DNA from: Malacoraja senta
Taxonomy: Eukaryota
Length of the DNA stretch: 64,000 nucleotides
Assembly: GCA_038087875.1 (NCBI GenBank)
Contig: CM075988.1
Location: 21,826,001-21,890,000 of the forward strand
Reading direction: 5' to 3'
Shown: positions 22,781-52,087 of the stretch, one piece after another
Layout: the number at the start of each line of letters is the position of its first letter
How positions within the stretch are numbered: position 1 is the first letter of the stretch
The notes under the pieces: generated by a model
The model's input: only the letters and a program-made list of their open reading frames with translations
Told to the model about the DNA's origin: nothing
Database searches by the model: none
Translations under genes and position numbers: made by a program

Positions 22781-23613
22781 CTATACCTTTAGACTTCAAA
22801 GATTATAGACTTTAAAGATACAGTGGAGAAACAGGCTTTTTGGTCCACCGAATCTGTGCTGACCATCGATCACTGTACATAACACTGTCCTATACACTAG
22901 GGACAATTTTACAACTTACTGAAGCCAATTAAACTACAAACCTACAATCTTTGGAGTGCGGGAGGATGCCAGAGCACCCAGTGAAAACTCACGCAGTCAC
23001 AGGGAGAACGTACAAACTCCGTACAGACAGCACCCGTGCTCACAGACAGCTCCATACAGACAGAACCCTGTGATAATAAAGTATCTATCAATCAATCAAT
23101 CATTAATTGAAGAGCGTATCAATGAATTCAGATGCTTAATTTCAGATGGTGCATTCTCAATCGTATTGTCCCCATGCATCAGGGAAACATCACCCCTCCA
23201 CTAACTAACTCCAACTCTTTGCTATTAACTAATTTTGTTGATGAACATCGTTCTTTTTGTTACTGTTAATGAAAGCACGTTTACTGGCAATACCTTTCAC
23301 ACATCATCGCGGTTCCACCAGCCTGTTAATTTGCAAGGAAATCAGTATTTATCCAACAGGAAAATCCCAGAGGAACTCTTCCCTGTCCTAGCTCTTGCAC
23401 AGCAGAACTGTGAATAAGATAAACTAGTATTGGTTCACGACACTAAAGTGACTGCTAATTCTTTCCCTGATTGTTTCCAGAAGCAGGGCAACATTGGGGT
23501 TCATAAGTGAAAGGAGCAGAATTAGGCCATTCGGCCCATCAAGCCTACTCCGCCATTCAATCATGGCTGATGTATCTTTCCCTCTTAACTCCATTACTCC
23601 TGACACCCGTACT

Positions 23614-23803
23614 TCTTCTTTTCGTGTCCATCTTGTTACAAATATTGACCTCGCTGTCATCGTCCGTCCTGAAAAGGACGCGAGCTTCCGGCGACAATCA
23701 GTGGAAGCCGTCACTTGTCGCAACAGATGATGGTGGTAGCAGAATTAGCTCAGGATACTTCCAGTTTCCAGCCCCGCGACGTGGACGCTTCTGCTATGGG
23801 GCC
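23614..23803 (-). mobile_element. 190-bp non-autonomous non-LTR retroelement with 5' HDV-like ribozyme and AAG-type tail (Vingi/Ingi-related, inferred)
   Basis: 11-bp TSD ACACCCGTACT at 23603-23613 and 23804-23814. Interrupts a CR1 3' UTR. Minus-strand 3' end ...GGACACGAAAAGAAGA. No A/B boxes, no ORF. Confidence 0.85.
23737..23803 (-). ncRNA. HDV-like (CPEB3-like) self-cleaving ribozyme, 67 nt
   Basis: Minus strand reads GGCCCC (P1) A TAGCAGAA (P2) GCG (P3) TCCACGT (L3, with the P1.1 CC) CGC (P3') GGGGCT (P1', G1-U wobble) GG (P1.1') AAACTGGAAGTATCCTGA (P4) GCTAA (J4/2, catalytic C at 23748) TTCTGCTA (P2'). All helices of the nested double pseudoknot pair. Confidence 0.88.
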
Positions 23804-24661
23804 ACACCCGTACTAATCCAGTATCTAACTATCTCTGCCTTAAAAATATCCATTGACGGCCTCCACAGCCTTGAATATCTTCAGTTTCCTCCCACACTCC
23901 AAAGACATACAGGTTTGCAGGTTAATTAGCTTTGTTAAAATTGTAAATTCTCCCTGGTGTGTAGGATAGTGCTAGTGTACGGGGATCGCTGGTCGGCGCG
24001 GTCTCGAGTCAAAGGGCATGATTCCGCGCTGTTTCTCTAAAGTCTAAAGTGATTTATGCTTTTTATTGTTACAATTCAAAACATATCAGCTTGGTTTTAC
24101 AGTCAGTTAAATTTGAAGCACATTGTTTATCTATTTGTTTATTCTGCAGACAAGTTGTTCTCAGATATTCAAAGTCACAACTTGCCTCAGGTGGGGATTA
24201 GGAGACAGTGAAGAGATTATAAAAGGGTGTTTCTCTTTATTTCATCAGAATGAAGAATCTTACTGATAAGTAAGAGGGGTGGGGGGAACTACTTTCAGTC
24301 TGAAGAAGGGTCCCGACCCGATACGTCACCCATTCATTTTTCTCCAGAGATGCTGCCTGACCCGCTGAGTTACTCCAACACTTATCTTACTATCTGAACG
24401 CTGTTTAAAACAGCAAGTGAAAGGTAGAATATTTATTTAAATGGAAAATCGAGCGCACTAAATGTGGTAGACGGAAAGAGAGATGAATTTAAGAGAGAAA
24501 AGACACAAGAAACTGAAAGAAATCGTGAAAAATAATGATTTATTTTTGAGAAATATTGAGGTTAGTGCACTTTTCAAAAAAACTTTCGCAATCAAACTTT
24601 GAACTGAATTAGCGCCGACATTCTCAGGCAGGTTTAATGCTTATCTATCAGGTAGAATAGA

Positions 24662-24715
24662 GGGGTGGGAGATTGCAACCTTCACGTGGTCCGCCTTGTT
24701 TCGACAAATGCAATC
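24662..24715 (+). ncRNA. Minimal HDV-like ribozyme (P4 essentially absent), 54 nt
   Basis: GGGGTGG (P1) GA GATTGCA (P2) ACC (P3) TTCACGT (L3) GGT (P3') CCGCCTT (P1') G TTTCGA CAAA (J4/2, catalytic C at 24705) TGCAATC (P2'). P2 and P3 pair perfectly; P1 has three G-U pairs. Confidence 0.8.
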
Positions 24716-24802
24716 AACCTGACGTGCACAATCAAATAAGATCAAATAGAACAAGTTGTCCTACAACTTTAGGCTGTGCACGCCGTACGCAAGAAGAAGA
24801 AG
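24662..24802 (+). mobile_element. 141-bp non-autonomous retroelement with 5' HDV-like ribozyme and (AAG)n tail
   Basis: 12-bp TSD AGGTAGAATAGA at 24650-24661 and 24803-24814. Tail TACGC(AAG)4. 3' half has stems CGTGCACA/TGTGCACG and AAGTTGT/ACAACTT. Confidence 0.85.
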
Positions 24803-25359
24803 AGGTAGAATAGACACAAAATGCTGGAGTAACTCAGCGGGACAGGCAGCATCTCTGGAGAGAAGGTATTCCATCCATGTGCCTATCTAAAGGTCTCATA
24901 AATGTCACTATCGTATCTGCCTCCACCACCACCCCTGGCAGCGTGTTCCAGGCACCCACCACACTCTTTGTGAAAAAGTTGTCCCGCGCATCTCCTTTAA
25001 ATTTTGCCCCTCTCACCTTAATTTACCCATAAACTTATGCCAATATCAATAAGGTGCATTTTATTATCCATAAACTCATTTGTGTTCCTACCTCAAAATA
25101 TGGTGGATAACTGGAAATAACAAAACAAAGCTGGAGGCAAAGAAATGAGGTGAAACTGACTGACCTTCATATCAAGGCAGTATTTGATTTAAGTGGAGAA
25201 ACAAGAAACTGCAGATGCTGGTTAACACACGAAAGGACACAAAGTGCTGGAGTAACCCAGCAGGCCAAACGGCATCTCTGGAGATCCGTGTTCTCCAGAG
25301 GTTCTGCCTGACCTGCTGAGTTACTCCAGCACTTTATGTCCTTTTCAGCATTTGATTAA

Positions 25360-25665
25360 GGTGGCGCAGTGGTAGAGTTGCTGCCTTACAGAGCCAGAGA
25401 CCTGGGTTTGATCCTGACTACGGTGGCTGTCTGTACGGAGTTTGTACGTTCTCCCCGTGGCCTGTGTGGGTTTTCTCTGGGTGCTCTGGTTTCCTCCCAC
25501 ACTCCAATGACGTACAGGTTTGTAGGTTAATTAGCTTTGGTAAATATTGTACCCTGTCCCCTAGTGTGTACAGGATAGTGCTGGTGTGCAGAGATTGCCG
25601 GTCGACGCGGACTCGGTGGGCCAAGGGACCTGTTTCAGTGCTATATCTCTGGACTAAACTAAATT
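25360..25665 (+). mobile_element. tRNA-derived SINE (HE1-like); further copies at ~4875-5135(-), 6295-6520(+), 9868-10140(-), 11905-12330(+), 21190-21485(-), 22790-23040(-), 23880-24050(+)
   Basis: GGTGGCGCAGTGGTAGAG..GGTTTGATCC head, shared body and CTAAA tail. Confidence 0.85.
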
Positions 25666-25699
25666 AAGTGAGGCATCAAGGACACTGGTAAAGTGAGAC

Positions 25700-26074
25700 A
25701 CAATGGAGCAAGGAGAACCAGCTGGGAACAGACTTCGCGACCTCCGCAATTCACTGTTGCACCGAACACCACAGCCCCACCCGGCTCGGACCTGCCCCGC
25801 AAAGAGTGGGTCGCCCTGAACCGGCTCCGTACAGGGGTCGGCCGGTTCAACGCCAACATGCATCACTGGGGGGCTGCGTTCATCGGCAGCCTGCGTGTGT
25901 GGTGCAGACCAGCAAACAGCGCAGCAGCACGTCATTTTCGACTGCGCTGTCCTCCGCCCCCCCTGGTGGAGGGGTAGACCTCACGGCCCTCGACAACAGC
26001 ACATTGAAATGGCTACAGCACCTGCAGGGCCTCACATAATCCCTGCTGCCTCAAACACAAGAAGAAGAAGAAGA
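25700..26074 (+). mobile_element. 5'-truncated Vingi/Ingi-clade LINE 3' end, frameshifted (copy B ~50022-50396)
   Basis: Translates across frameshifts to PPGSDLPRKEWVALNRLRTGVGRF..MHHWG / CVCGADQQTAQ / HVIFDC, the NRLRTG + CxCG..H..C zinc-knuckle C-terminus of I-group/Vingi ORFs. Ends in (AAG)5. Confidence 0.8.
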
Positions 26075-26103
26075 TGCAGAATGGAAATTAAGGGAAATAC
26101 TCT

Positions 26104-26117
26104 CCACTAGGTGGAGC
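26104..26117 (+). promoter_or_regulatory. Candidate CTCF core motif
   Basis: CCACTAGGTGGAGC, one mismatch to CCASYAGRKGGCRS. Motif match only. Confidence 0.25.
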
Positions 26118-26135
26118 CAAGTCTAACACTATGCA

Positions 26136-26273
26136 CAATAAATGTGAACCTGGAGATTAATCATACCAGCCCCAGGGCATCATTCCAGAACTTTCCCACT
26201 GCATGGTCATTAAGGCAAGACTCCTTAAAGACTCTGGGGCTGGTATGATTCATCTCCAGGTTCACATTTATTG
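26136..26273. repeat. Isolated 40-bp inverted repeat with 58-bp spacer (copy B 50458-50595)
   Basis: CAATAAATGTGAACCTGGAGATTAATCATACCAGCCCCAG (26136-26175) versus its reverse complement at 26234-26273, one mismatch. Confidence 0.9.
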
Positions 26274-26972
26274 CGTCAAATATGGCATTGCATTGCAAGG
26301 TTAGAAGTTGGGATTTTCATAGATTGCAACATTTCTAAACTCAGAGTCATTGAGTCATACGTTGTGAGAACAGGCCTTCAGTCCAACTTGTCCACGCTGA
26401 CCAAGATGCTTCATCCACACTAGTTGCACCAGCCCACATTTGGCCAACATCCCTCTAAACCTTTCCTATCAATGTATCCAAACCTGAGGAGCAACTTTTT
26501 CACAAACTGCCAGAGGATGTAGTTGAGGCAGCTGTTGTAACAACAGAGTGTCATAGAGCCATACAGGGTGGAAATGGGCCCTTCGGCCCAACTCGCCCAC
26601 GCCGACCAACATTTAAAAGACATTTGGCCAGGAACATGGATCGGAAAGCTTTATGTGCCGATCACAGGTAAAGGGGATTAGCTAAGATGTGGATAGACAC
26701 AAAATGCTGGAGTAACTCAGCGGATCTGGAAGCATCTCTGGAGAGAAGGAATCGGTGACGTTTCCGGTCGAGACCCTTCTTCAGACATCTTAAGATGTGG
26801 ATCTTGGTTGGTATCTTGGCCTAAGGGCTTGAGCCGTACAAATCTATGACTTAATTTCATGAATAGCTGAGGTAGACACTGTGAAATTAAAATGTTGTCG
26901 GTTTGTTAAGTAGCTGTTATTCTAAGGTCACATCTCCTATTCTCTGTCCAATTATTGTAATGGTGTTTTAAT

Positions 26973-27172
26973 NNNNNNNNNNNNNNNNNNNNNNNNNNNN
27001 NNNNNNNNNNNNNNNNNNNNNNNNNNNNNNNNNNNNNNNNNNNNNNNNNNNNNNNNNNNNNNNNNNNNNNNNNNNNNNNNNNNNNNNNNNNNNNNNNNNN
27101 NNNNNNNNNNNNNNNNNNNNNNNNNNNNNNNNNNNNNNNNNNNNNNNNNNNNNNNNNNNNNNNNNNNNNNNN
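26973..27172. other. Assembly gap, 200 N
   Basis: Run of exactly 200 N between the two duplicated copies. Confidence 0.99.
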
Positions 27173-30100
27173 CGACCTACTTGATGCCACGAGTACCTAC
27201 GACTAGCATCACGACCCGCTACCACCTACCTGTAGATGATATATGCATGTGCCTTTAACATAGTGACCTCATACCTACTAACCACTCCCCATATCACAAG
27301 TATAACTACAACCTCCCCACCCACAGATCGCTCTCTAGTTCCTGTGTCAGACCACGTACAGCTAGTGCAATATGTAATGCTCCAGTATGAATAAAGATAG
27401 TAAAGTAACGATGCCTCGTTATAGCTTCTTTACATGGTGTCAGAAGTGGGATGTCGCGGTCTCCTCCGTCTCCTCCCGTTTCCCCCTTTCAGGTTCGTCT
27501 GCCCCCATCGGTGCCTCTTCTTCCTGCCGGAAGGGAGGATGGCGAGATGCGAACCCGGTCGGGACGTCTTGACAAACCGCCTGTCCGCTACGGCGATTTT
27601 GTTTAACTGTCCTAGCGCATGAGCCGTGGTCGCCCTGTCACTATTGTATTTGCCTGTCGTTTCCAAGGGGAAGGATGTAGATGATATATGCATGTGCCTT
27701 TAACATAGTGACCTCATACCTACTGACCACTCCCCATATCACAAGTATAACTACAACCTCCCCACCCACAGATCGCTCTCTAGTTCCTGTGACACACCAC
27801 GTACAGCTAGTGCAATATGTAATGCTCCAGTATGAATAAAGATAGTAAAGTAATGATGCCTCGTTATAGCTTCTTTACACTACCTACGACCTCCTACGAC
27901 CTTGTGACGTCCATGCTGCGAGTATGAGTCGAGGGCAAACTCGGCAGAGGTCGTGAAAGTGGGACAGGCCCTTAAGTCCTCCTTTTACACGATTAAATCA
28001 TTTACACGATTAGATTACAGGGCAGCAGGGAGAAGATGTTGTGGGCCAGTTTCACTGTGTTGTTCGCAGGGAATGCGTGAGGCTACTCTGCAGACCAACA
28101 GTAAGAGCTTTTTAATCGGGGTTGGACAAATGCAAACATTAAATGACGATAATAACCGAGGCTGCTCTCTCTCCTGACAATGTGGCAGCCACATGGGTGG
28201 CCGTGTTTGCATAATTGAGGCAGGTTCGTGTGAAAACAACTCGGGAACAGCAATCTCTATGAAAAGAGAGGGCGACAATTATCTTAATAATTAGGCATAA
28301 CATCTTTATGTGATTATGATTTCTACACAGGTGGATAAAGACCAACCAAACTTATAATGCAGATTTAATGGGATCATCGAAACGTGGGAATGAATTGTAA
28401 AAAGCAAAGATTTCAAGGCTAAGATGGATAGGGAAGGTTTAGATGGGTAGGAAAGATTTAGCAGGATATGGGGCCAAACGCGAGCAAATGGGACTATCTT
28501 GGACCATCTTGGTCAGCATGGACGAGTTGGGCCGAAGGGCCTGTTTCTGTGCTGTATGACAATAGACAATAGGTGCAGGAGTAGGCCATTCGGCCCTTCG
28601 AGCCAGCACCGCCATTCAATGTGATCATGGCTGATCATCCCCAATCAGTACCCCGTTCCTGCCTTCTCCCCATATCCCCTGACTCTGCTATTTTTAAGAG
28701 CCCTATCTAGCTCTTTCTTGAAAGCATCCAGAGAACCTGCCTCCACTGCCCTATGAGGCAGAGAATTCCACAGACTCGCCACTCTCTGTGAGAAAAAGTG
28801 TTTCCTCGTCTCCGTTCTAAATGGCTTACTCCTTATTCTTAAACTGTGGCCCCTGGTTCTGGACTCCCCCAACATCGGGAACATTGGACTTAGGCTGAGG
28901 AAGAACTGAGCAAGTGGTGCTGAAACAATGAGTGTGAGAGGGTCACCGATGCAAACTGTTTGGATTATTGGTGGTTTTCTTTATGTTAGTTTATTGTCCG
29001 TGTACGAGGTACAATGAAAAGCTGGGCATGGCCATCAGGAAGGATGAGTAGATGGTGAGGAGGGTTACTGGAATGGCTCCAAAGAGTTTGAGACTCCACT
29101 GCTGTGTAGACCTGGAGAGAATGGGGGTGATTTCCATCAGAATGTGTAAGGATAAGTGAAATGACATTCCATTGGTTTCCTCTGCTCCAGAAACAGGCCC
29201 TTCGGCCCATCTAGTCCGCGCCAACCACCGATCACCCAGTACGCTAACACTATCCTCCACACTAGGGACAATTTACAATCTTTACTGAAGCCAATTAACC
29301 GACAAACCTGCACGTCTTTGGGGTGTGGGAGGAAACTGGAACACCTGGAGAAACGGGGAGCACGTGCAAACTCCATACAGACAGCACCCGTAGTCAGGAT
29401 TGAACCCGGGTCTCTGGCGCTGTAAGACAGCAACTCCACCACTGTGCTGCCTGGCACCAGATACCCCACTTACACCACGTCGGAGATATCTCAGGGCAGC
29501 CCAGTGAGGAAGCACGTTTAATATATAATATTCATACTGTATATAATATCGGGGTGACACGATAGCTTTTCACACAGACGGCGGTGGGTATATGGAACAA
29601 ACTGCCGGAGGCAGTAGTTGAGGTAGGTACTTTGAGTTTGAGGTTAGTTTATTGTCACATGTACCGAGGTACGGAGAAAAGCTTTTGTTGCGTGCTAACC
29701 AGTCAGCGGAAAGGCAATACATGACAAACCATCGACAGTGTACAAATATATTGGTACGTGGAATAGGAAAGGTTTGGAGGAATGTTGGCTGGAAGGTGGG
29801 CAGGTGGGACAAGTGTAGATGGGAGCATCTTTGTCGGTGCAATGAATATTTTACCCATAACCTATCCAGGTCTACCGAGATGCACAAGAAACCAGTTCTC
29901 TGCACTACAGGCCAAATTGAATACCAGTGCAAGGTGAATAGGTGCAGAAGAGGGAGAGGTGTCCCTCAGGGAGTCCAACATCAAACAGAAAGGGACAACA
30001 ACACAACAAAGAGTTGGGGAATTCACCGCTGGTGCTGTCAGCAGAGCAATTTGCTGATCTTTGATCAGATAAATCTTTGAGGCCTTAATTATATTAAAAG

Positions 30101-45100: not shown

Positions 45101-48051
45101 GACAAAGTTACAAAAGTACCGAACATTCCCATCTACTGCCTGCCCCACATGTGGCAGCATGCTCCCCCCCTCCCCTCCCCTCCCCTCCCCTCCCCTCCCC
45201 TCCTCAAGGGTGATCTCTCATTTTCACACCTTACCCTTCCATATCTCTATGCCTCCCTCTCCCCTGACTCTCACTGTGAAGAAGGGTCCCGACACAAAAC
45301 ATCACCCATCTTTTTTCTCCATAGATGCTGCCTGTACCACTGAGTTACTCCAGCATGTTGTGTCTTGTGTAAGAATTTCAATGTTCTGTCCGGGACATAT
45401 GACAATAAATATCTTGACTCTTGACTCATGAAATGGTGCTAATTTTCGTTATGGGAGTCCTTGGGCTTGTTAGTATGTCTGGCCTATTTTTGATTGAATG
45501 ATTGAAACATACAGCATGGAAACGGGCCCCTCAGCCCATCAAGTCCGCACCGACCATTGATCACCCGCTCACATTAGTTCTATGTTATCCCCCTTTCCCT
45601 TCACACTAGGGAGCAATTTGCAGAGGCCAACTAACCTACAAACCCGCAGGTCTTTGGGATGTGGTAGGAAACCAGAGCACCTGGAAGAAACCCACCTGGT
45701 CAGCGAGGGAACGTGAAAACTCCACACAGACAGCACCTGAGGGCAGGATCGAATATGGGGCTCTGATGCTGCGAGGCAGCAGCTCCACCAGCTGTGCCAT
45801 TGAGACAGAGGCAAGGAGATCACCTTTAATCAAACACCAACCAAATAATTGGGACTTTTCATAAAAGTCATTTTTATATGAACTTGCAGTTTTAATCTTT
45901 TTAAATATAATCTCTTTGATGTCCTCATTTAGTTAAAAGATACGAGGAATAAATATATTACCTTTAACTCCCCATCACATTCCCAATCGGACCTTTCTGT
46001 CCTGGGCCTCCTCCATTGTCAGAGTGAGGCCCAGCACAAATTGGAGGAACAGCACCTCATATTTTGCTTGGGTAGTTTACACCCCAGCGGTATGAACATT
46101 GACTTCTCTAACATCAAGTAGCCCTTGCTTTCCCTCTCCCTCCATTCCCTCCCCCTTCCCAGTTCTCCCACCAGTCTTACTGTCTCCAACTACATTCTAT
46201 CTCTGTCCCACCCACTCCCCTGACACCAGTCTGAAGAAGGGTCTCGACCCGAAACGTCACCCATTCCTTCTCTCCAGAGATGCTGCCTGTCCCGCTGAGT
46301 TAAGGGCCTGTCCCACTGTACGAGGTAATTCAAGAGCTCTCCCGAGTTAAAAAAAAAAATCAAACTCGTGGTAAGCACGTAGAATGTACGTAGCGGCTAC
46401 GTCGGAGCTCGGGACGTTTCTTAGCGGCTCGTAACGCTAATGGCAGGTACTCGGGAAATGCGGTAAGCTCGTGAAGACTCGTGAAGATTTTTCAACATGT
46501 TGAAAAATGTCCACGAGAGCCCCGAGTACCTACGAGCGGCCATTACCGTAATTCTCCGAGTTCGAATCAGGGGAAACTCGGGAGAGCTCTTGAATTAGCT
46601 CGTACAGTGGGACAGCCCCATTACTCCAGCATTTTGTGTCTACCTTCGATTTAAACCAGTATCTGCAGTTCTTTCCTACACAATATATTACCTTTTGTTT
46701 ATTTCATCAAAATATAGGATGCCATTTCACATTTTGAAAATGTAGTTTATCCTCGATAGTATTATTTACAAAAATTAATCCCACTTGATACCTAGGAGAA
46801 AGCTTGCACCGTTATCTAAAGCTGTCATGATATTCCATTACATAAGCTCAGTTTGAATTATTTATCATTTGCTAAACTCAAAGTAATCACCAACTTTGTG
46901 ATTTTACCCATCACCAGCCATTGCTTACAAATAAATCTCAGATCACTTTGCAATATATATATCAAAATAAAAATATATATAAAATATATATAATAATATA
47001 TATAAAATAAATATAAAAATATACAAAATATATATATATATATAAAAATATATATAATGATATATATAAAATATGCAAAATAAATACATAAAAAGCTATA
47101 CCTTTAGACTTCAAAGATTATAGACTTTAAAGATACAGTGGAGAAACAGGCTTTTTGGTCCACCGAATCTGTGCTGACCATCGATCACTGTACATAACAC
47201 TGTCCTATACACTAGGGACAATTTTACAACTTACTGAAGCCAATTAAACTACAAACCTACAATCTTTGGAGTGCGGGAGGATGCCAGAGCACCCAGTGAA
47301 AACTCACGCAGTCACAGGGAGAACGTACAAACTCCGTACAGACAGCACCCGTGCTCACAGACAGCTCCATACAGACAGAACCCTGTGATAATAAAGTATC
47401 TATCAATCAATCAATCATTAATTGAAGAGCGTATCAATGAATTCAGATGCTTAATTTCAGATGGTGCATTCTCAATCGTATTGTCCCCATGCATCAGGGA
47501 AACATCACCCCTCCACTAACTAACTCCAACTCTTTGCTATTAACTAATTTTGTTGATGAACATCGTTCTTTTTGTTACTGTTAATGAAAGCACGTTTACT
47601 GGCAATACCTTTCACACATCATCGCGGTTCCACCAGCCTGTTAATTTGCAAGGAAATCAGTATTTATCCAACAGGAAAATCCCAGAGGAACTCTTCCCTG
47701 TCCTAGCTCTTGCACAGCAGAACTGTGAATAAGATAAACTAGTATTGGTTCACGACACTAAAGTGACTGCTAATTCTTTCCCTGATTGTTTCCAGAAGCA
47801 GGGCAACATTGGGGTTCATAAGTGAAAGGAGCAGAATTAGGCCATTCGGCCCATCAAGCCTACTCCGCCATTCAATCATGGCTGATGTATCTTTCCCTCT
47901 TAACTCCATTACTCCTGACACCCGTACTTCTTCTTTTCGTGTCCATCTTGTTACAAATATTGACCTCGCTGTCATCGCCCGTCCTGAAAAGGGCGCGAGC
48001 TTCCGGCGACAATCAGTGGAAGCCGTCACTTGTCGCAACAGATGATGGTGG

Positions 48052-48118
48052 TAGCAGAATTAGCTCAGGATACTTCCAGTTTCCAGCCCCGCCACGTGGA
48101 CGCTTCTGCTATGGGGCC
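48052..48118 (-). ncRNA. Copy-B version of the CPEB3-like HDV ribozyme (element 47929-48118), with a P3 mismatch
   Basis: Same as 23737-23803 except that position 48093 changes P3' from CGC to GGC. Confidence 0.75.
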
Positions 48119-48983: not shown

Positions 48984-49124
48984 GGGGTGGGAGATTGCAA
49001 CCTTCACGTGGTCCGCCTTGTTTCGACAAATGCAATCAACCTGACGTGCACAATCAAATAAGATCAAATAGAACAAGTTGTCCTACAACTTTAGGCTGTG
49101 CACGCCGTACGCAAGAAGAAGAAG
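48984..49124 (+). mobile_element. Copy-B version of the 141-bp HDV-ribozyme-headed element (ribozyme 48984-49037)
   Basis: Same sequence and TSD as 24662-24802. Confidence 0.8.
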
Positions 49125-52087
49125 AGGTAGAATAGACACAAAATGCTGGAGTAACTCAGCGGGACAGGCAGCATCTCTGGAGAGAAGGTATTCCATCCAT
49201 GTGCCTATCTAAAGGTCTCATAAATGTCACTATCGTATCTGCCTCCACCACCACCCCTGGCAGCGTGTTCCAGGCACCCACCACACTCTTTGTGAAAAAG
49301 TTGTCCCGCGCATCTCCTTTAAATTTTGCCCCTCTCACCTTAATTTACCCATAAACTTATGCCAATATCAATAAGGTGCATTTTATTATCCATAAACTCA
49401 TTTGTGTTCCTACCTCAAAATATGGTGGATAACTGGAAATAACAAAACAAAGCTGGAGGCAAAGAAATGAGGTGAAACTGACTGACCTTCATATCAAGGC
49501 AGTATTTGATTTAAGTGGAGAAACAAGAAACTGCAGATGCTGGTTAACACACGAAAGGACACAAAGTGCTGGAGTAACCCAGCAGGCCAAACGGCATCTC
49601 TGGAGATCCGTGTTCTCCAGAGGTTCTGCCTGACCTGCTGAGTTACTCCAGCACTTTATGTCCTTTTCAGCATTTGATTAAGGTGGCGCAGTGGTAGAGT
49701 TGCTGCCTTACAGAGCCAGAGACCTGGGTTTGATCCTGACTACGGTGGCTGTCTGTACGGAGTTTGTACGTTCTCCCCGTGGCCTGTGTGGGTTTTCTCT
49801 GGGTGCTCTGGTTTCCTCCCACACTCCAATGACGTACAGGTTTGTAGGTTAATTAGCTTTGGTAAATATTGTACCCTGTCCCCTAGTGTGTACAGGATAG
49901 TGCTGGTGTGCAGAGATTGCCGGTCGACGCGGACTCGGTGGGCCAAGGGACCTGTTTCAGTGCTATATCTCTGGACTAAACTAAATTAAGTGAGGCATCA
50001 AGGACACTGGTAAAGTGAGACACAATGGAGCAAGGAGAACCAGCTGGGAACAGACTTCGCGACCTCCGCAATTCACTGTTGCACCGAACACCACAGCCCC
50101 ACCCGGCTCGGACCTGCCCCGCAAAGAGTGGGTCGCCCTGAACCGGCTCCGTACAGGGGTCGGCCGGTTCAACGCCAACATGCATCACTGGGGGGCTGCG
50201 TTCATCGGCAGCCTGCGTGTGTGGTGCAGACCAGCAAACAGCGCAGCAGCACGTCATTTTCGACTGCGCTGTCCTCCGCCCCCCCTGGTGGAGGGGTAGA
50301 CCTCACGGCCCTCGACAACAGCACATTGAAATGGCTGCAGCACCTGCAGGGCCTCACATAATCCCTGCTGCCTCAAACACAAGAAGAAGAAGAAGATGCA
50401 GAATGGAAATTAAGGGAAATACTCTCCACTAGGTGGAGCCAAGTCTAACACTATGCACAATAAATGTGAACCTGGAGATTAATCATACCAGCCCCAGGGC
50501 ATCATTCCAGAACTTTCCCACTGCATGGTCATTAAGGCAAGACTCCTTAAAGACTCTGGGGCTGGTATGATTCATCTCCAGGTTCACATTTATTGCGTCA
50601 AATATGGCATTGCATTGCAAGGTTAGAAGTTGGGATTTTCATAGATTGCAACATTTCTAAACTCAGAGTCATTGAGTCATACGTTGTGAGAACAGGCCTT
50701 CAGTCCAACTTGTCCACGCTGACCAAGATGCTTCATCCACACTAGTTGCACCAGCCCACATTTGGCCAACATCCCTCTAAACCTTTCCTATCAATGTATC
50801 CAAACCTGAGGAGCAACTTTTTCACAAACTGCCAGAGGATGTAGTTGAGGCAGCTGTTGTAACAACAGAGTGTCATAGAGCCATACAGGGTGGAAATGGG
50901 CCCTTCGGCCCAACTCGCCCACGCCGACCAACATTTAAAAGACATTTGGCCAGGAACATGGATCGGAAAGCTTTATGTGCCGATCACAGGTAAAGGGGAT
51001 TAGCTAAGATGTGGATAGACACAAAATGCTGGAGTAACTCAGCGGATCTGGAAGCATCTCTGGAGAGAAGGAATCGGTGACGTTTCCGGTCGAGACCCTT
51101 CTTCAGACATCTTAAGATGTGGATCTTGGTTGGTATCTTGGCCTAAGGGCTTGAGCCGTACAAATCTATGACTTAATTTCATGAATAGCTGAGGTAGACA
51201 CTGTGAAATTAAAATGTTGTCGGTTTGTTAAGTAGCTGTTATTCTAAGGTCACATCTCCTATTCTCTGTCCAATTATTGTAATGGTGTTTTAATACAGCC
51301 AAGCAAAATCACTACGTTATTCACACTCTCGTATGTGATCTCACATTTGACCTTTTCACAAAGGAATTAAAAATGCACAGCTGTCACAGGGACCATCAAA
51401 TAATTTACAGACAGCTTGTTAAGCCTTGTTTTTACATTTTCCTCTGAAGAAAAAATAATGTGCTTTGCACAAATAGAGCCATTCCTACATTAGTGAACCA
51501 GTAACCATAGGAACCAGTAACCATAGCAAATCTGCGTTTAGTTTAGTTATAGTTCAGTTTAGAGACACAGGCCCTTTGGCCCACTGTGTCCGCGCCGACC
51601 AGCGATCCCCGCACACTAGCACTATCCTACGCACACGAATGACAATTTACATTTACACCAAGCCAATTAATCTACAAACCTCTATGTCTTTGGAGTGTGG
51701 GAGGAAACCGGAGCACCCGGAGAAAAACCCACGGGCTCACCAGGAGGACGTACAAAATCCGTACAGACAGCACCCGCAGTCAGGATGGAACCTTTGCGCT
51801 GGGTCTCTGGCGCTGTAAGGCAGTAACTTTACCGCTGCGCCATCGTGCAGGTAGGCGTTCTGTGGGTTGTCCCGCGTGTGCAGGAGAGACGCGGTGGAAT
51901 GAAAGAAAGATGAACTTCCTCGGCCTCTCCGAAGCCTCCAAAGCCCCGAGGAATCAGTGAAGTAATTTGAGGCATAATTTCTTCATGATAATATTATTAT
52001 AATACATAATAAAAAATCAGTAACTATCGCAACATTTAAGTCGGCACTATTGCAACGTTTAAGAAACATTTAGACTTAGGACAGTGT

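Follow-up and report, generated by a model that had tools for sequence, protein, structure and literature searches.

The window analysed here is a stretch of 64,000 nt from Malacoraja senta (assembly GCA_038087875.1, contig CM075988.1, positions 21,826,001–21,890,000 of the forward strand). It contains two short retroposons, termed E1 and E2, and the 3' end of a long interspersed element (LINE), termed LINE1. E1 and E2 each begin with a sequence that matches the fold of a hepatitis delta virus (HDV)-like ribozyme, and both are bounded by a target-site duplication (TSD). The original prediction had placed two ribozyme-headed short elements and a LINE 3' end within 2.5 kb of each other, and its coordinates and quoted ends are right; its interpretation is supported in part. 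The features are as follows, with positions given within the window.

23613–23803, minus strand: E1, a complete non-autonomous retroposon of 191 nt consisting of a ribozyme head, a body of about 110 nt and the tail AAAAGAAGAA.
23737–23803, minus strand: head of E1, an HDV-like ribozyme of the CPEB3 type (match to Rfam RF00622 and to a structural descriptor).
23804–23814, minus strand: 5' TSD of E1, AGTACGGGTGT, repeated exactly at 23603–23613.
23603–23613, minus strand: 3' TSD of E1, the first A of which is ambiguous with the tail.
24662–24803, plus strand: E2, a complete non-autonomous retroposon of 142 nt consisting of a ribozyme head, a body and the end ...GTACGC(AAG)4.
24662–24715, plus strand: head of E2, a minimal HDV-like ribozyme (descriptor match; P4 is almost absent).
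24650–24661, plus strand: 5' TSD of E2, AGGTAGAATAGA, an exact TSD.
24803–24814, plus strand: 3' TSD of E2, the first A of which is ambiguous with the tail.
25698–26074, plus strand: LINE1 3' end, 5'-truncated, with C-terminal coding sequence containing a CxCx8Hx4C motif, a short 3' untranslated region (UTR) and an (AAG)5 tail.

E1 is read on the minus strand, where it begins with GGCCCC and has the 3' terminus ...GGACACGAAAAGAAGAA and an (AAG)n tail. A genome search gave 2061 candidates at first look, and the scored copies are full length in 40 of 40 cases with 96–100% identity. The copies are spread over many loci on many contigs, i.e., E1 is a dispersed repeat. E2 begins with GGGGTGG on the plus strand and gave 1618 first-look candidates, with all 40 scored copies again at 96–100% identity. 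Mean pairwise identity of the sampled copies is 96.6% for E1 and 97.6% for E2; these values, and those given below for the LINEs, come from the best-scoring 40 hits and are thus biased samples. After removal of loci with identical flanks, 27 independent loci remain for E1 and 28 for E2. The first base of the element is the first base of the ribozyme in all of these loci. TSDs of at least 10 bp lie directly against the first base of the ribozyme in 21 of the 27 E1 loci (10–14 bp) and in 20 of the 28 E2 loci (10–20 bp), with a median of 12 bp in both families, and imperfect TSDs are visible in several loci outside this count. The target context is also alike, with pyrimidines at -2 and -1 and an A at +1 (YTY/A), the +1 A being partly confounded with the tail. 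E1 and E2 are confirmed as complete, TSD-flanked, ribozyme-headed retroposons that start at the predicted cleavage site.

The last TSD base before the E1 ribozyme is a T in 22 of the 27 independent loci (among loci L001–L030), and the corresponding count for E2 is 13 of 28. The T is present in the 3' TSD copy as well and therefore originates from the target. It could reflect a preference at the step where the second strand is nicked or joined, or microhomology to a base added to the cDNA without a template.

E1 and E2 are not short interspersed elements (SINEs) with a head of the RNA polymerase III (Pol III) type. ARAGORN finds no tRNA gene at positions 23300–26400, and Rfam models of tRNA, 5S, 7SL and snRNA do not match either element at E ≤ 10.

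The LINE1 fragment in the window ends with ...AACAC(AAG)5, the tail occupying positions 26059–26074, and no TSD was found at 25698–26074. Similarity to the fragment continues upstream for varying lengths in 28 other loci, as is expected of LINE copies, and others reach the reverse transcriptase (RT) and the apurinic/apyrimidinic endonuclease (APE). There are at least 601 candidates in the genome. A tblastn search of the window and all loci with the open reading frame (ORF) of the LINE shows nothing beyond the known fragment and its duplicate. Truncated LINE1 copies have TSDs of 7–11 bp in about 9 of 28 cases. A longer copy of about 3.1 kb (L091) encodes Pfam domains Exo_endo_phos_2 (APE, E 1.5e-11) and RVT_1 (E 5e-17), together with a weak zf-RVT match across the CxCx8Hx4C motif; no Pfam RNase H family is present in its frames at E ≤ 0.01. 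Just upstream of the APE start, L091 (minus strand) also encodes the peptide ...STDVEP(D/N)GITLLQLN..., which superficially resembles a 2A sequence (D-V-E-x-N-P-G-P) and is without NPGP. Ingi and L1Tc carry 2A-like sequences at that place, and none is reported for Vingi (PMC3708506).

A six-frame search of the genome for RT, in which 150 of 72,822 candidates were scored, separates two groups. The first is the LINE1 family, with 75–100% identity to the query and an open frame of up to 925 aa. The second, termed LINE2, has 56–60% identity to the query and many open frames of 400–677 aa on large contigs. A full-length LINE2 copy is about 3.27 kb and has a TSD of 9–12 bp that abuts the first base of its ribozyme. 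At the 5' end, 29 of 38 non-self hits begin within 3 nt of the predicted cleavage site and none of these shares flanking sequence; one reaches query position 4. The family has 1270 candidates, the scored ones being 95–100% (mostly 96–98%) identical to the reference copy, and its 3' end is ...GACATACGACAG(AAG)4.... The 3' ends of LINE1 copies have a mean pairwise identity of 93.2%, i.e., they are older than E1 and E2.

The head of E1 matches the Rfam model CPEB3_ribozyme at 23738–23811 on the minus strand with 35.5 bits, against a gathering score of 35. This is the sole gathering-level Rfam match in the whole window. The LINE1 head matches HDV-F-prausnitzii (RF02682) with 28.4–29.7 bits (E 0.003–0.03), below the gathering score of 44; the match precedes the ATG by about 70 nt and the start of the APE by about 195 nt. 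A descriptor of the HDV-like fold was applied to all heads. It consists of P1 of 6–7 bp, J1/2 of 0–3 nt, P2 of 6–8 bp, P3 of 3 bp, L3 of 7 nt, the P1 3' strand directly after P3, a P4 region of 5–60 nt, and CNAA directly before the P2 3' strand. All four heads satisfy this descriptor with differing helix sequences in which complementarity is kept:

E1 head: P1 GGCCCC/GGGGCU; P2 UAGCAGAA/UUCUGCUA; P3 GCG/CGC; L3 UCCACGU; J4/2 CUAA.
E2 head: P1 GGGGUGG/CCGCCUU; P2 GAUUGCA/UGCAAUC; P3 ACC/GGU; L3 UUCACGU; J4/2 CAAA.
LINE1 head: P1 AGGGCUC/GAGCCCU; P2 GUUGUCG/CGACAAC; P3 ACC/GGU; J4/2 CAAA.
LINE2 head: P1 GGAGGAG/CUACUCC, with one mismatch; P2 AAAGACA/UGUCUUU; P3 GCC/GGC; J4/2 CCAA.

P1 is paired at 7/7 positions in E1 with the flanking T included (or 6/6), 7/7 in E2, 7/7 in LINE1 and 6/7 in LINE2. 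P2 is 8 bp in E1, 7 bp in E2, 8 bp in LINE1 and 7 bp in LINE2, and P3 is 3 bp in all four. The putative catalytic C, in J4/2 directly before the P2 3' strand, is present in every head. The predicted cleavage site of E1 is 5' of the G at 23803. In E1, E2 and LINE2 the 5' ends of the elements and their TSDs coincide with the position of predicted self-scission, which is 5' of the first P1 nucleotide. On the point of whether LINEs of this kind bear a ribozyme the outcome favours the original prediction: LINE1 and LINE2 have HDV-like ribozymes at the 5' end or close to it.

The second common property is at the 3' end. E1, E2, LINE1 and LINE2 all end with ACG, then 1–4 nt, then AAG repeats, and the AAG tail that had been proposed as common to the short elements and the LINE is borne out. 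ACGC(AAG)n is common to E2 and LINE1, and GACA..CGA.A.AAGAAG to E1 and LINE2. E1 and E2 appear to be served by the same machinery, having the same TSD length and the same target context, and the full-length LINE2 copy has a TSD of 9–12 bp. A comparison of age and TSD length had also been proposed; agreement is seen in the common median TSD of E1 and E2 and in the similarly young LINE2, and it does not extend to the LINE1 family represented in the window, which is older. In terms of age a LINE of the family 2 type would fit better as the driver of E1 and E2 than the LINE1 fragment beside them.

A mechanism can be proposed on this basis. [quoted passage not shown] At the opposite end of the RNA, ...ACG(N)1-4(AAG)n would then be used by the RT of compact, single-ORF, Vingi-like APE+RT LINEs of the same genome for target-primed reverse transcription. 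The outcome would be full-length copies with TSDs of about 12 bp. A 5' end defined by a ribozyme, together with copying by the machinery of an AAG-tailed Vingi-like LINE, is the probable origin of E1 and E2; self-cleavage activity, read-through transcription and the driver LINE family are steps that we infer from sequence.

Several observations weigh against this mechanism; they concern the folds, the 5' ends of LINE1, and the connection of E1 and E2 with the LINEs. With respect to the folds, an Rfam scan of the E2 head at E ≤ 10 gives no match and the LINE2 head likewise is without Rfam support. The descriptor has a chance rate of roughly one site per 35–70 kb. Minimum free energy (MFE) folding of the heads gives z-scores of 0.09 and 1.32, i.e., no signal, pseudoknots being outside the method. 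MFE folding of the four 3' ends gives z-scores of -1.57 to +0.67 and no common structure. One may then ask whether the folds are chance matches or dead relics and the elements ordinary tailed retroposons without a ribozyme. In the window, both strands included, the descriptor finds the E1 and E2 heads only (4 sites owing to a duplication described below). In the 343 kb examined on both strands there are 62 distinct sites, of which 57 are heads of the four families and 5 are background: 24 E1 heads (28 loci), 25 E2 heads (28 loci), 4 in the window, 3 LINE1, 1 LINE2 and 5 elsewhere. Raw hits number 146, as compared with 18–30 in each of 5 dinucleotide shuffles. The background sites and the shuffle hits, as well as the missing Rfam matches of E2 and LINE2, speak for chance, and the descriptor by itself is only moderately specific. 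However, the matches coincide with the first base in four independent families delimited by TSDs, which is not chance, and E1 passes the curated Rfam threshold. That the folds are accidental or defunct is very improbable.

The 5' ends of LINE1 provide the second set of points. A 15-nt leader, TTTTATATAACACAY, precedes the predicted cleavage site in 5 of 5 LINE1 5' ends seen, these being two in L091 and one each in L092, L093 and L094, duplicates of just two junction types. In four of the five, the AT-rich sequence upstream is common over at least 100 nt, and over at least 140 nt in L092–L094. In addition, 40 of 40 scored hits of the LINE1 5' region continue into the flank, many of them on small contigs. 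At least one LINE1 copy was made from RNA that retained the leader. This bears on another explanation of the precise 5' ends, namely that they mark transcription starts from a promoter inside the element and overlapping the fold, Pr77/L1TcRz of Trypanosoma cruzi being an example, or that the fold mainly protects the 5' end or helps translation. The leader implies that uncleaved RNA can be copied, DNA data cannot tell a transcription start from a cleavage site, and a dual promoter/ribozyme has a described precedent (PMC3383444). Against this, the HDV-like core is complete in four unrelated heads, down to the CNAA of J4/2, which is hard to explain by a promoter alone, and the searches with Rfam (E ≤ 10) and ARAGORN found no Pol III-type head. 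An internal promoter or a protective fold is, in our estimate, a rather improbable source of the 5' ends as compared with cleavage by the ribozyme.

L091 (G000:C1885:66400-72400, minus strand) is itself a composite of two LINE1 copies. The first copy occupies positions 1–1677 and has a 64-nt deletion in the ribozyme; it is followed by about 18 nt of filler and then by a full copy with the 15-nt leader. The composite junction is present in 38 of 40 scored hits, many of these on small contigs, and two copies are 9.64 kb apart on one contig. The common flank and junction of the LINE1 5' copies, together with this spacing, indicate amplification as DNA in a larger repeat and not by independent insertions.

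The third set of points concerns the link to the LINEs. A blastn-short comparison of E1 and E2 with LINE1 and LINE2 finds the tail only. Local alignment of the E1 and E2 bodies with the LINE 3' ends places three comparisons at the level of chance, and the best, E1 against LINE2, is weak, with 72 of 2000 shuffles reaching its score. This comparison contains a 10-nt match, GACGAUGACA, located beside a hairpin in both elements, which was rejected as not significant by the same shuffles. The E1, E2 and LINE heads are about 50% identical pairwise, as is expected of a shared core. The link of E1 with the LINEs, and equally that of E2, is made up of a microsatellite preceded by a 3–4-nt motif, the length of the TSDs, the target context and the age. 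The LINE families whose ends were compared number two, drawn from the 150 scored RT candidates. Since only the tail is shared, E1 and E2 are not internal-deletion derivatives of LINE1 or LINE2, and a derivation of the RIME/NARTc type, the parallel drawn in the original prediction, is not supported, in that no 5' or 3' sequence is shared with either LINE beyond ACG(N)1-4 and the AAG repeat. In relation to these two LINEs, the short elements are not bipartite non-autonomous LINEs of the RIME/NARTc/Bov-A type. Each resembles an independent ribozyme head to which a minimal end of the LINE type has been attached.

These same data allow for mobilisation of E1 and E2 by another LINE outside the sample, either a true deletion parent of the same kind or a member of another clade with an AAG-type tail, in which case the likeness of the tails would be generic. 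The lack of similarity of the E1/E2 heads and bodies to LINE1 and LINE2 and the small fraction of RT candidates scored are in line with this. On the other hand, the ACG(N)+(AAG)n end and a 5' HDV-like ribozyme occur together in each of the two families sampled, TSD length and target context agree, and LINE2 is as young as E1 and E2. Another driver LINE is therefore unlikely, and machinery of the LINE1/LINE2 kind continues to be the better explanation.

A direct LINE-derived short element was found in LINE2. Among the 38 hits of the LINE2 5' end, 18 stop at positions 229–273. At G000:C3:18354030-18354400 (L098/L099) there is a 5'-solo retroposon in which LINE2 positions 1 to about 245 are joined to A10 and which has a 13-bp TSD. 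It contains the ribozyme, the 5' UTR and the first codons, and it ends in an A-rich stretch internal to LINE2, which suggests that reverse transcription can start at this internal site. A second 5'-solo copy has no clear TSD, and a third has single-copy sequence downstream. The 5'-solo element is thus a bipartite derivative taken directly from its LINE. A possible third family, with the LINE2 head and a new body (L097), was rejected, as the downstream sequence is single-copy.

LINE2 5' fragments and LINE2 3' ends also occur on opposite strands, within 0.7–1.6 kb of each other, in three places: G000:C21:5827027-5827940, C1:305998097-305999064 and C1:210782316-210784134. These pairs look like inversions formed at insertion, of the twin-priming type.

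The LINEs found here have a single ORF with APE followed by RT, are without RNase H and measure about 3.1–3.3 kb. The relatives in the protein collection (120 listed, 850–1342 aa) mostly have APE and RT, a few having RT only or extra unrelated domains, and no RNase H is seen among the Pfam domains of the 120. They are mostly on contigs of 3.1–3.6 kb, and the intact ones are 970–1050 aa. One listed relative (P0240, 40% identity) is from Anolis carolinensis, a species from which Vingi elements have been described (PMC5786205). Vingi is reported to have a single ORF of 993 aa (PMC3708506), Vingi-2_Gav is 3128 bp (PMC5786205), and Vingi elements are described as being without RNase H (PMC13708176), a feature that separates Vingi from Ingi. 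LINE1 and LINE2 are consistent with Vingi membership by architecture and size alone; a clade assignment from the database names of homologues was attempted, and these names are uninformative. The likeness to the known elements (Vingi-1_EE, Vingi-2_ACar/SINE2-1_ACar and Vingi-2_Gav) consists of a compact single-ORF APE+RT organization, no RNase H, and the presence of short derivatives.

The closest parallels to the whole system are found in trypanosomatids. NARTc, RIME and SIDER are short retroposons with an HDV-like ribozyme head and are accompanied by LINEs, L1Tc and ingi, with the same kind of head; the ribozyme is described as lying in the first ~77 nt and the short elements as being copied by the LINE (PMC4035085, PMC3383444, PMC5786205). 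There the short elements and the LINE have the same 5' and 3' ends (Pr77), the tails are poly(A), and RNase H is encoded by the LINE. E1 and E2, in contrast, have heads that differ from the LINE heads, (AAG)n tails, and LINEs without RNase H. The R2 SIDEs of Drosophila and the bipartite LINEs derived from RTE (PMC3414825, PMC5786205) also combine a ribozyme-processed 5' end with a 3' end recognised by a LINE. However, they are internal-deletion derivatives, and R2 is rDNA-specific, whereas E1 and E2 are dispersed and are not derived from the sampled LINEs.

The head of E1 has a further significance in its resemblance to the CPEB3 ribozyme. All 20 further E1 copies examined are matched by the CPEB3 model, with 27.3–42.8 bits, and 17 of the 20 reach the threshold of 35; the model does not match the heads of E2, LINE1 or LINE2. 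A manual count on the alignment with the printed CPEB3 consensus gives 42 identical positions out of 67 in the core. Identity is 20/22 across J1/2-P2-P3-L3-P3' and 10/11 in J4/2-P2', and P1 and P4 differ. HDV-like ribozymes are described as having only about six invariant nucleotides (PMC8256844), so the high identity in helices that are free to vary suggests that the E1 head and the CPEB3 ribozyme may be of common descent. Near identity in J1/2, P2, P3, L3 and J4/2 combined with divergence in P1 and P4 is the pattern that would be expected of homologues and not of convergence on a fold. The likeness to RF00622 is thus a head at or above the curated threshold. The differences are the P1 and P4 sequences and genomic distribution: the CPEB3 ribozyme is described as a single-copy, conserved, intronic ribozyme of mammals (PMC10919898), and E1 is a dispersed family with more than 2000 candidates. 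E1 is CPEB3-like in sequence and is not an orthologue, being dispersed and not at the CPEB3 intron position.

A tentative proposal, which we hold to be possible and somewhat doubtful, is that the CPEB3 ribozyme arose by domestication from the head of a retroposon lineage that resembles E1 and is mobilised by LINEs, and that this lineage continues to amplify here, to thousands of copies; the mammalian ribozyme would then not be an isolated invention. Traces of Vingi are reported in the human genome as X12_LINE (PMC5753468), by which a donor lineage would have been available to mammalian ancestors. In the portions of the CPEB3 literature surveyed the ribozyme is mammalian and its source is unstated, and no link in sequence to a retroposon head was found there, though one may be in print elsewhere. 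A dispersed relative makes the origin of the CPEB3 ribozyme testable by comparative genomics.

Ribozyme-terminated LINEs and their short parasites are known from trypanosomes, insects and RTE elements. A compact APE+RT LINE of vertebrate type, Vingi-like, with HDV-like ribozymes is new in this respect: the clade is not listed among ribozyme bearers and no ribozyme is attributed to Vingi in the parts of the literature surveyed, and Repbase entries or other papers may contain one. Also new are at least two very abundant short families that have their own, unrelated ribozyme heads and share just the microsatellite end of the LINE. Such independent heads imply that a ribozyme can fill the role that a tRNA or 5S head has in SINEs. 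Self-cleaving motifs that are potentially active and present by the thousand in introns would have consequences for the processing of host RNA. Vingi-type elements are reported to be under development as gene-insertion tools with native 5' UTRs retained (PMC13708176), and a structured ribozyme in that region is therefore of practical interest.

Positions 2860–26972 of the window recur at 27173–51294 with 99.4–99.9% identity, forming a 24.1-kb direct duplication that flanks a gap of 200 N (26973–27172). Either the block was duplicated in tandem very recently, or the duplication is false and was produced at the assembly gap. The duplicated block contains second copies of the three elements:

47928–48118, minus strand: E1, 98% identity, same flanks.
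48984–49125, plus strand: E2, 100% identity.
50020–50396, plus strand: LINE1 fragment, 100% identity.

Because the duplication extends across the N gap, this second cluster, 24.3 kb away, is not independent of the first. Three elements in 2.5 kb are unusual for a random spot in a genome of 1.94 Gb that has at least 2061, 1618 and 601 candidates, but the site was picked after the fact. The clustering is treated as chance or as regional accumulation of repeats.

Two other repeats are found near the elements. Positions 25247–25329 (plus strand) contain a short hairpin-forming repeat (...GCTGGAGTAACTCAGC...) with a sub-threshold match to the mir-607 model (35.1 bits against 94). Similar words are repeated at approximately 24810–24860, 24300–24380 and 26700–26790, and also in the flanks of many loci; the repeat looks like an abundant palindromic element resembling miniature inverted-repeat transposable elements (MITEs). 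A long inverted repeat at 26129–26282 matches a plant miRNA model on both strands with about 30 bits, far below the threshold of 96, and is probably another MITE-like hairpin.

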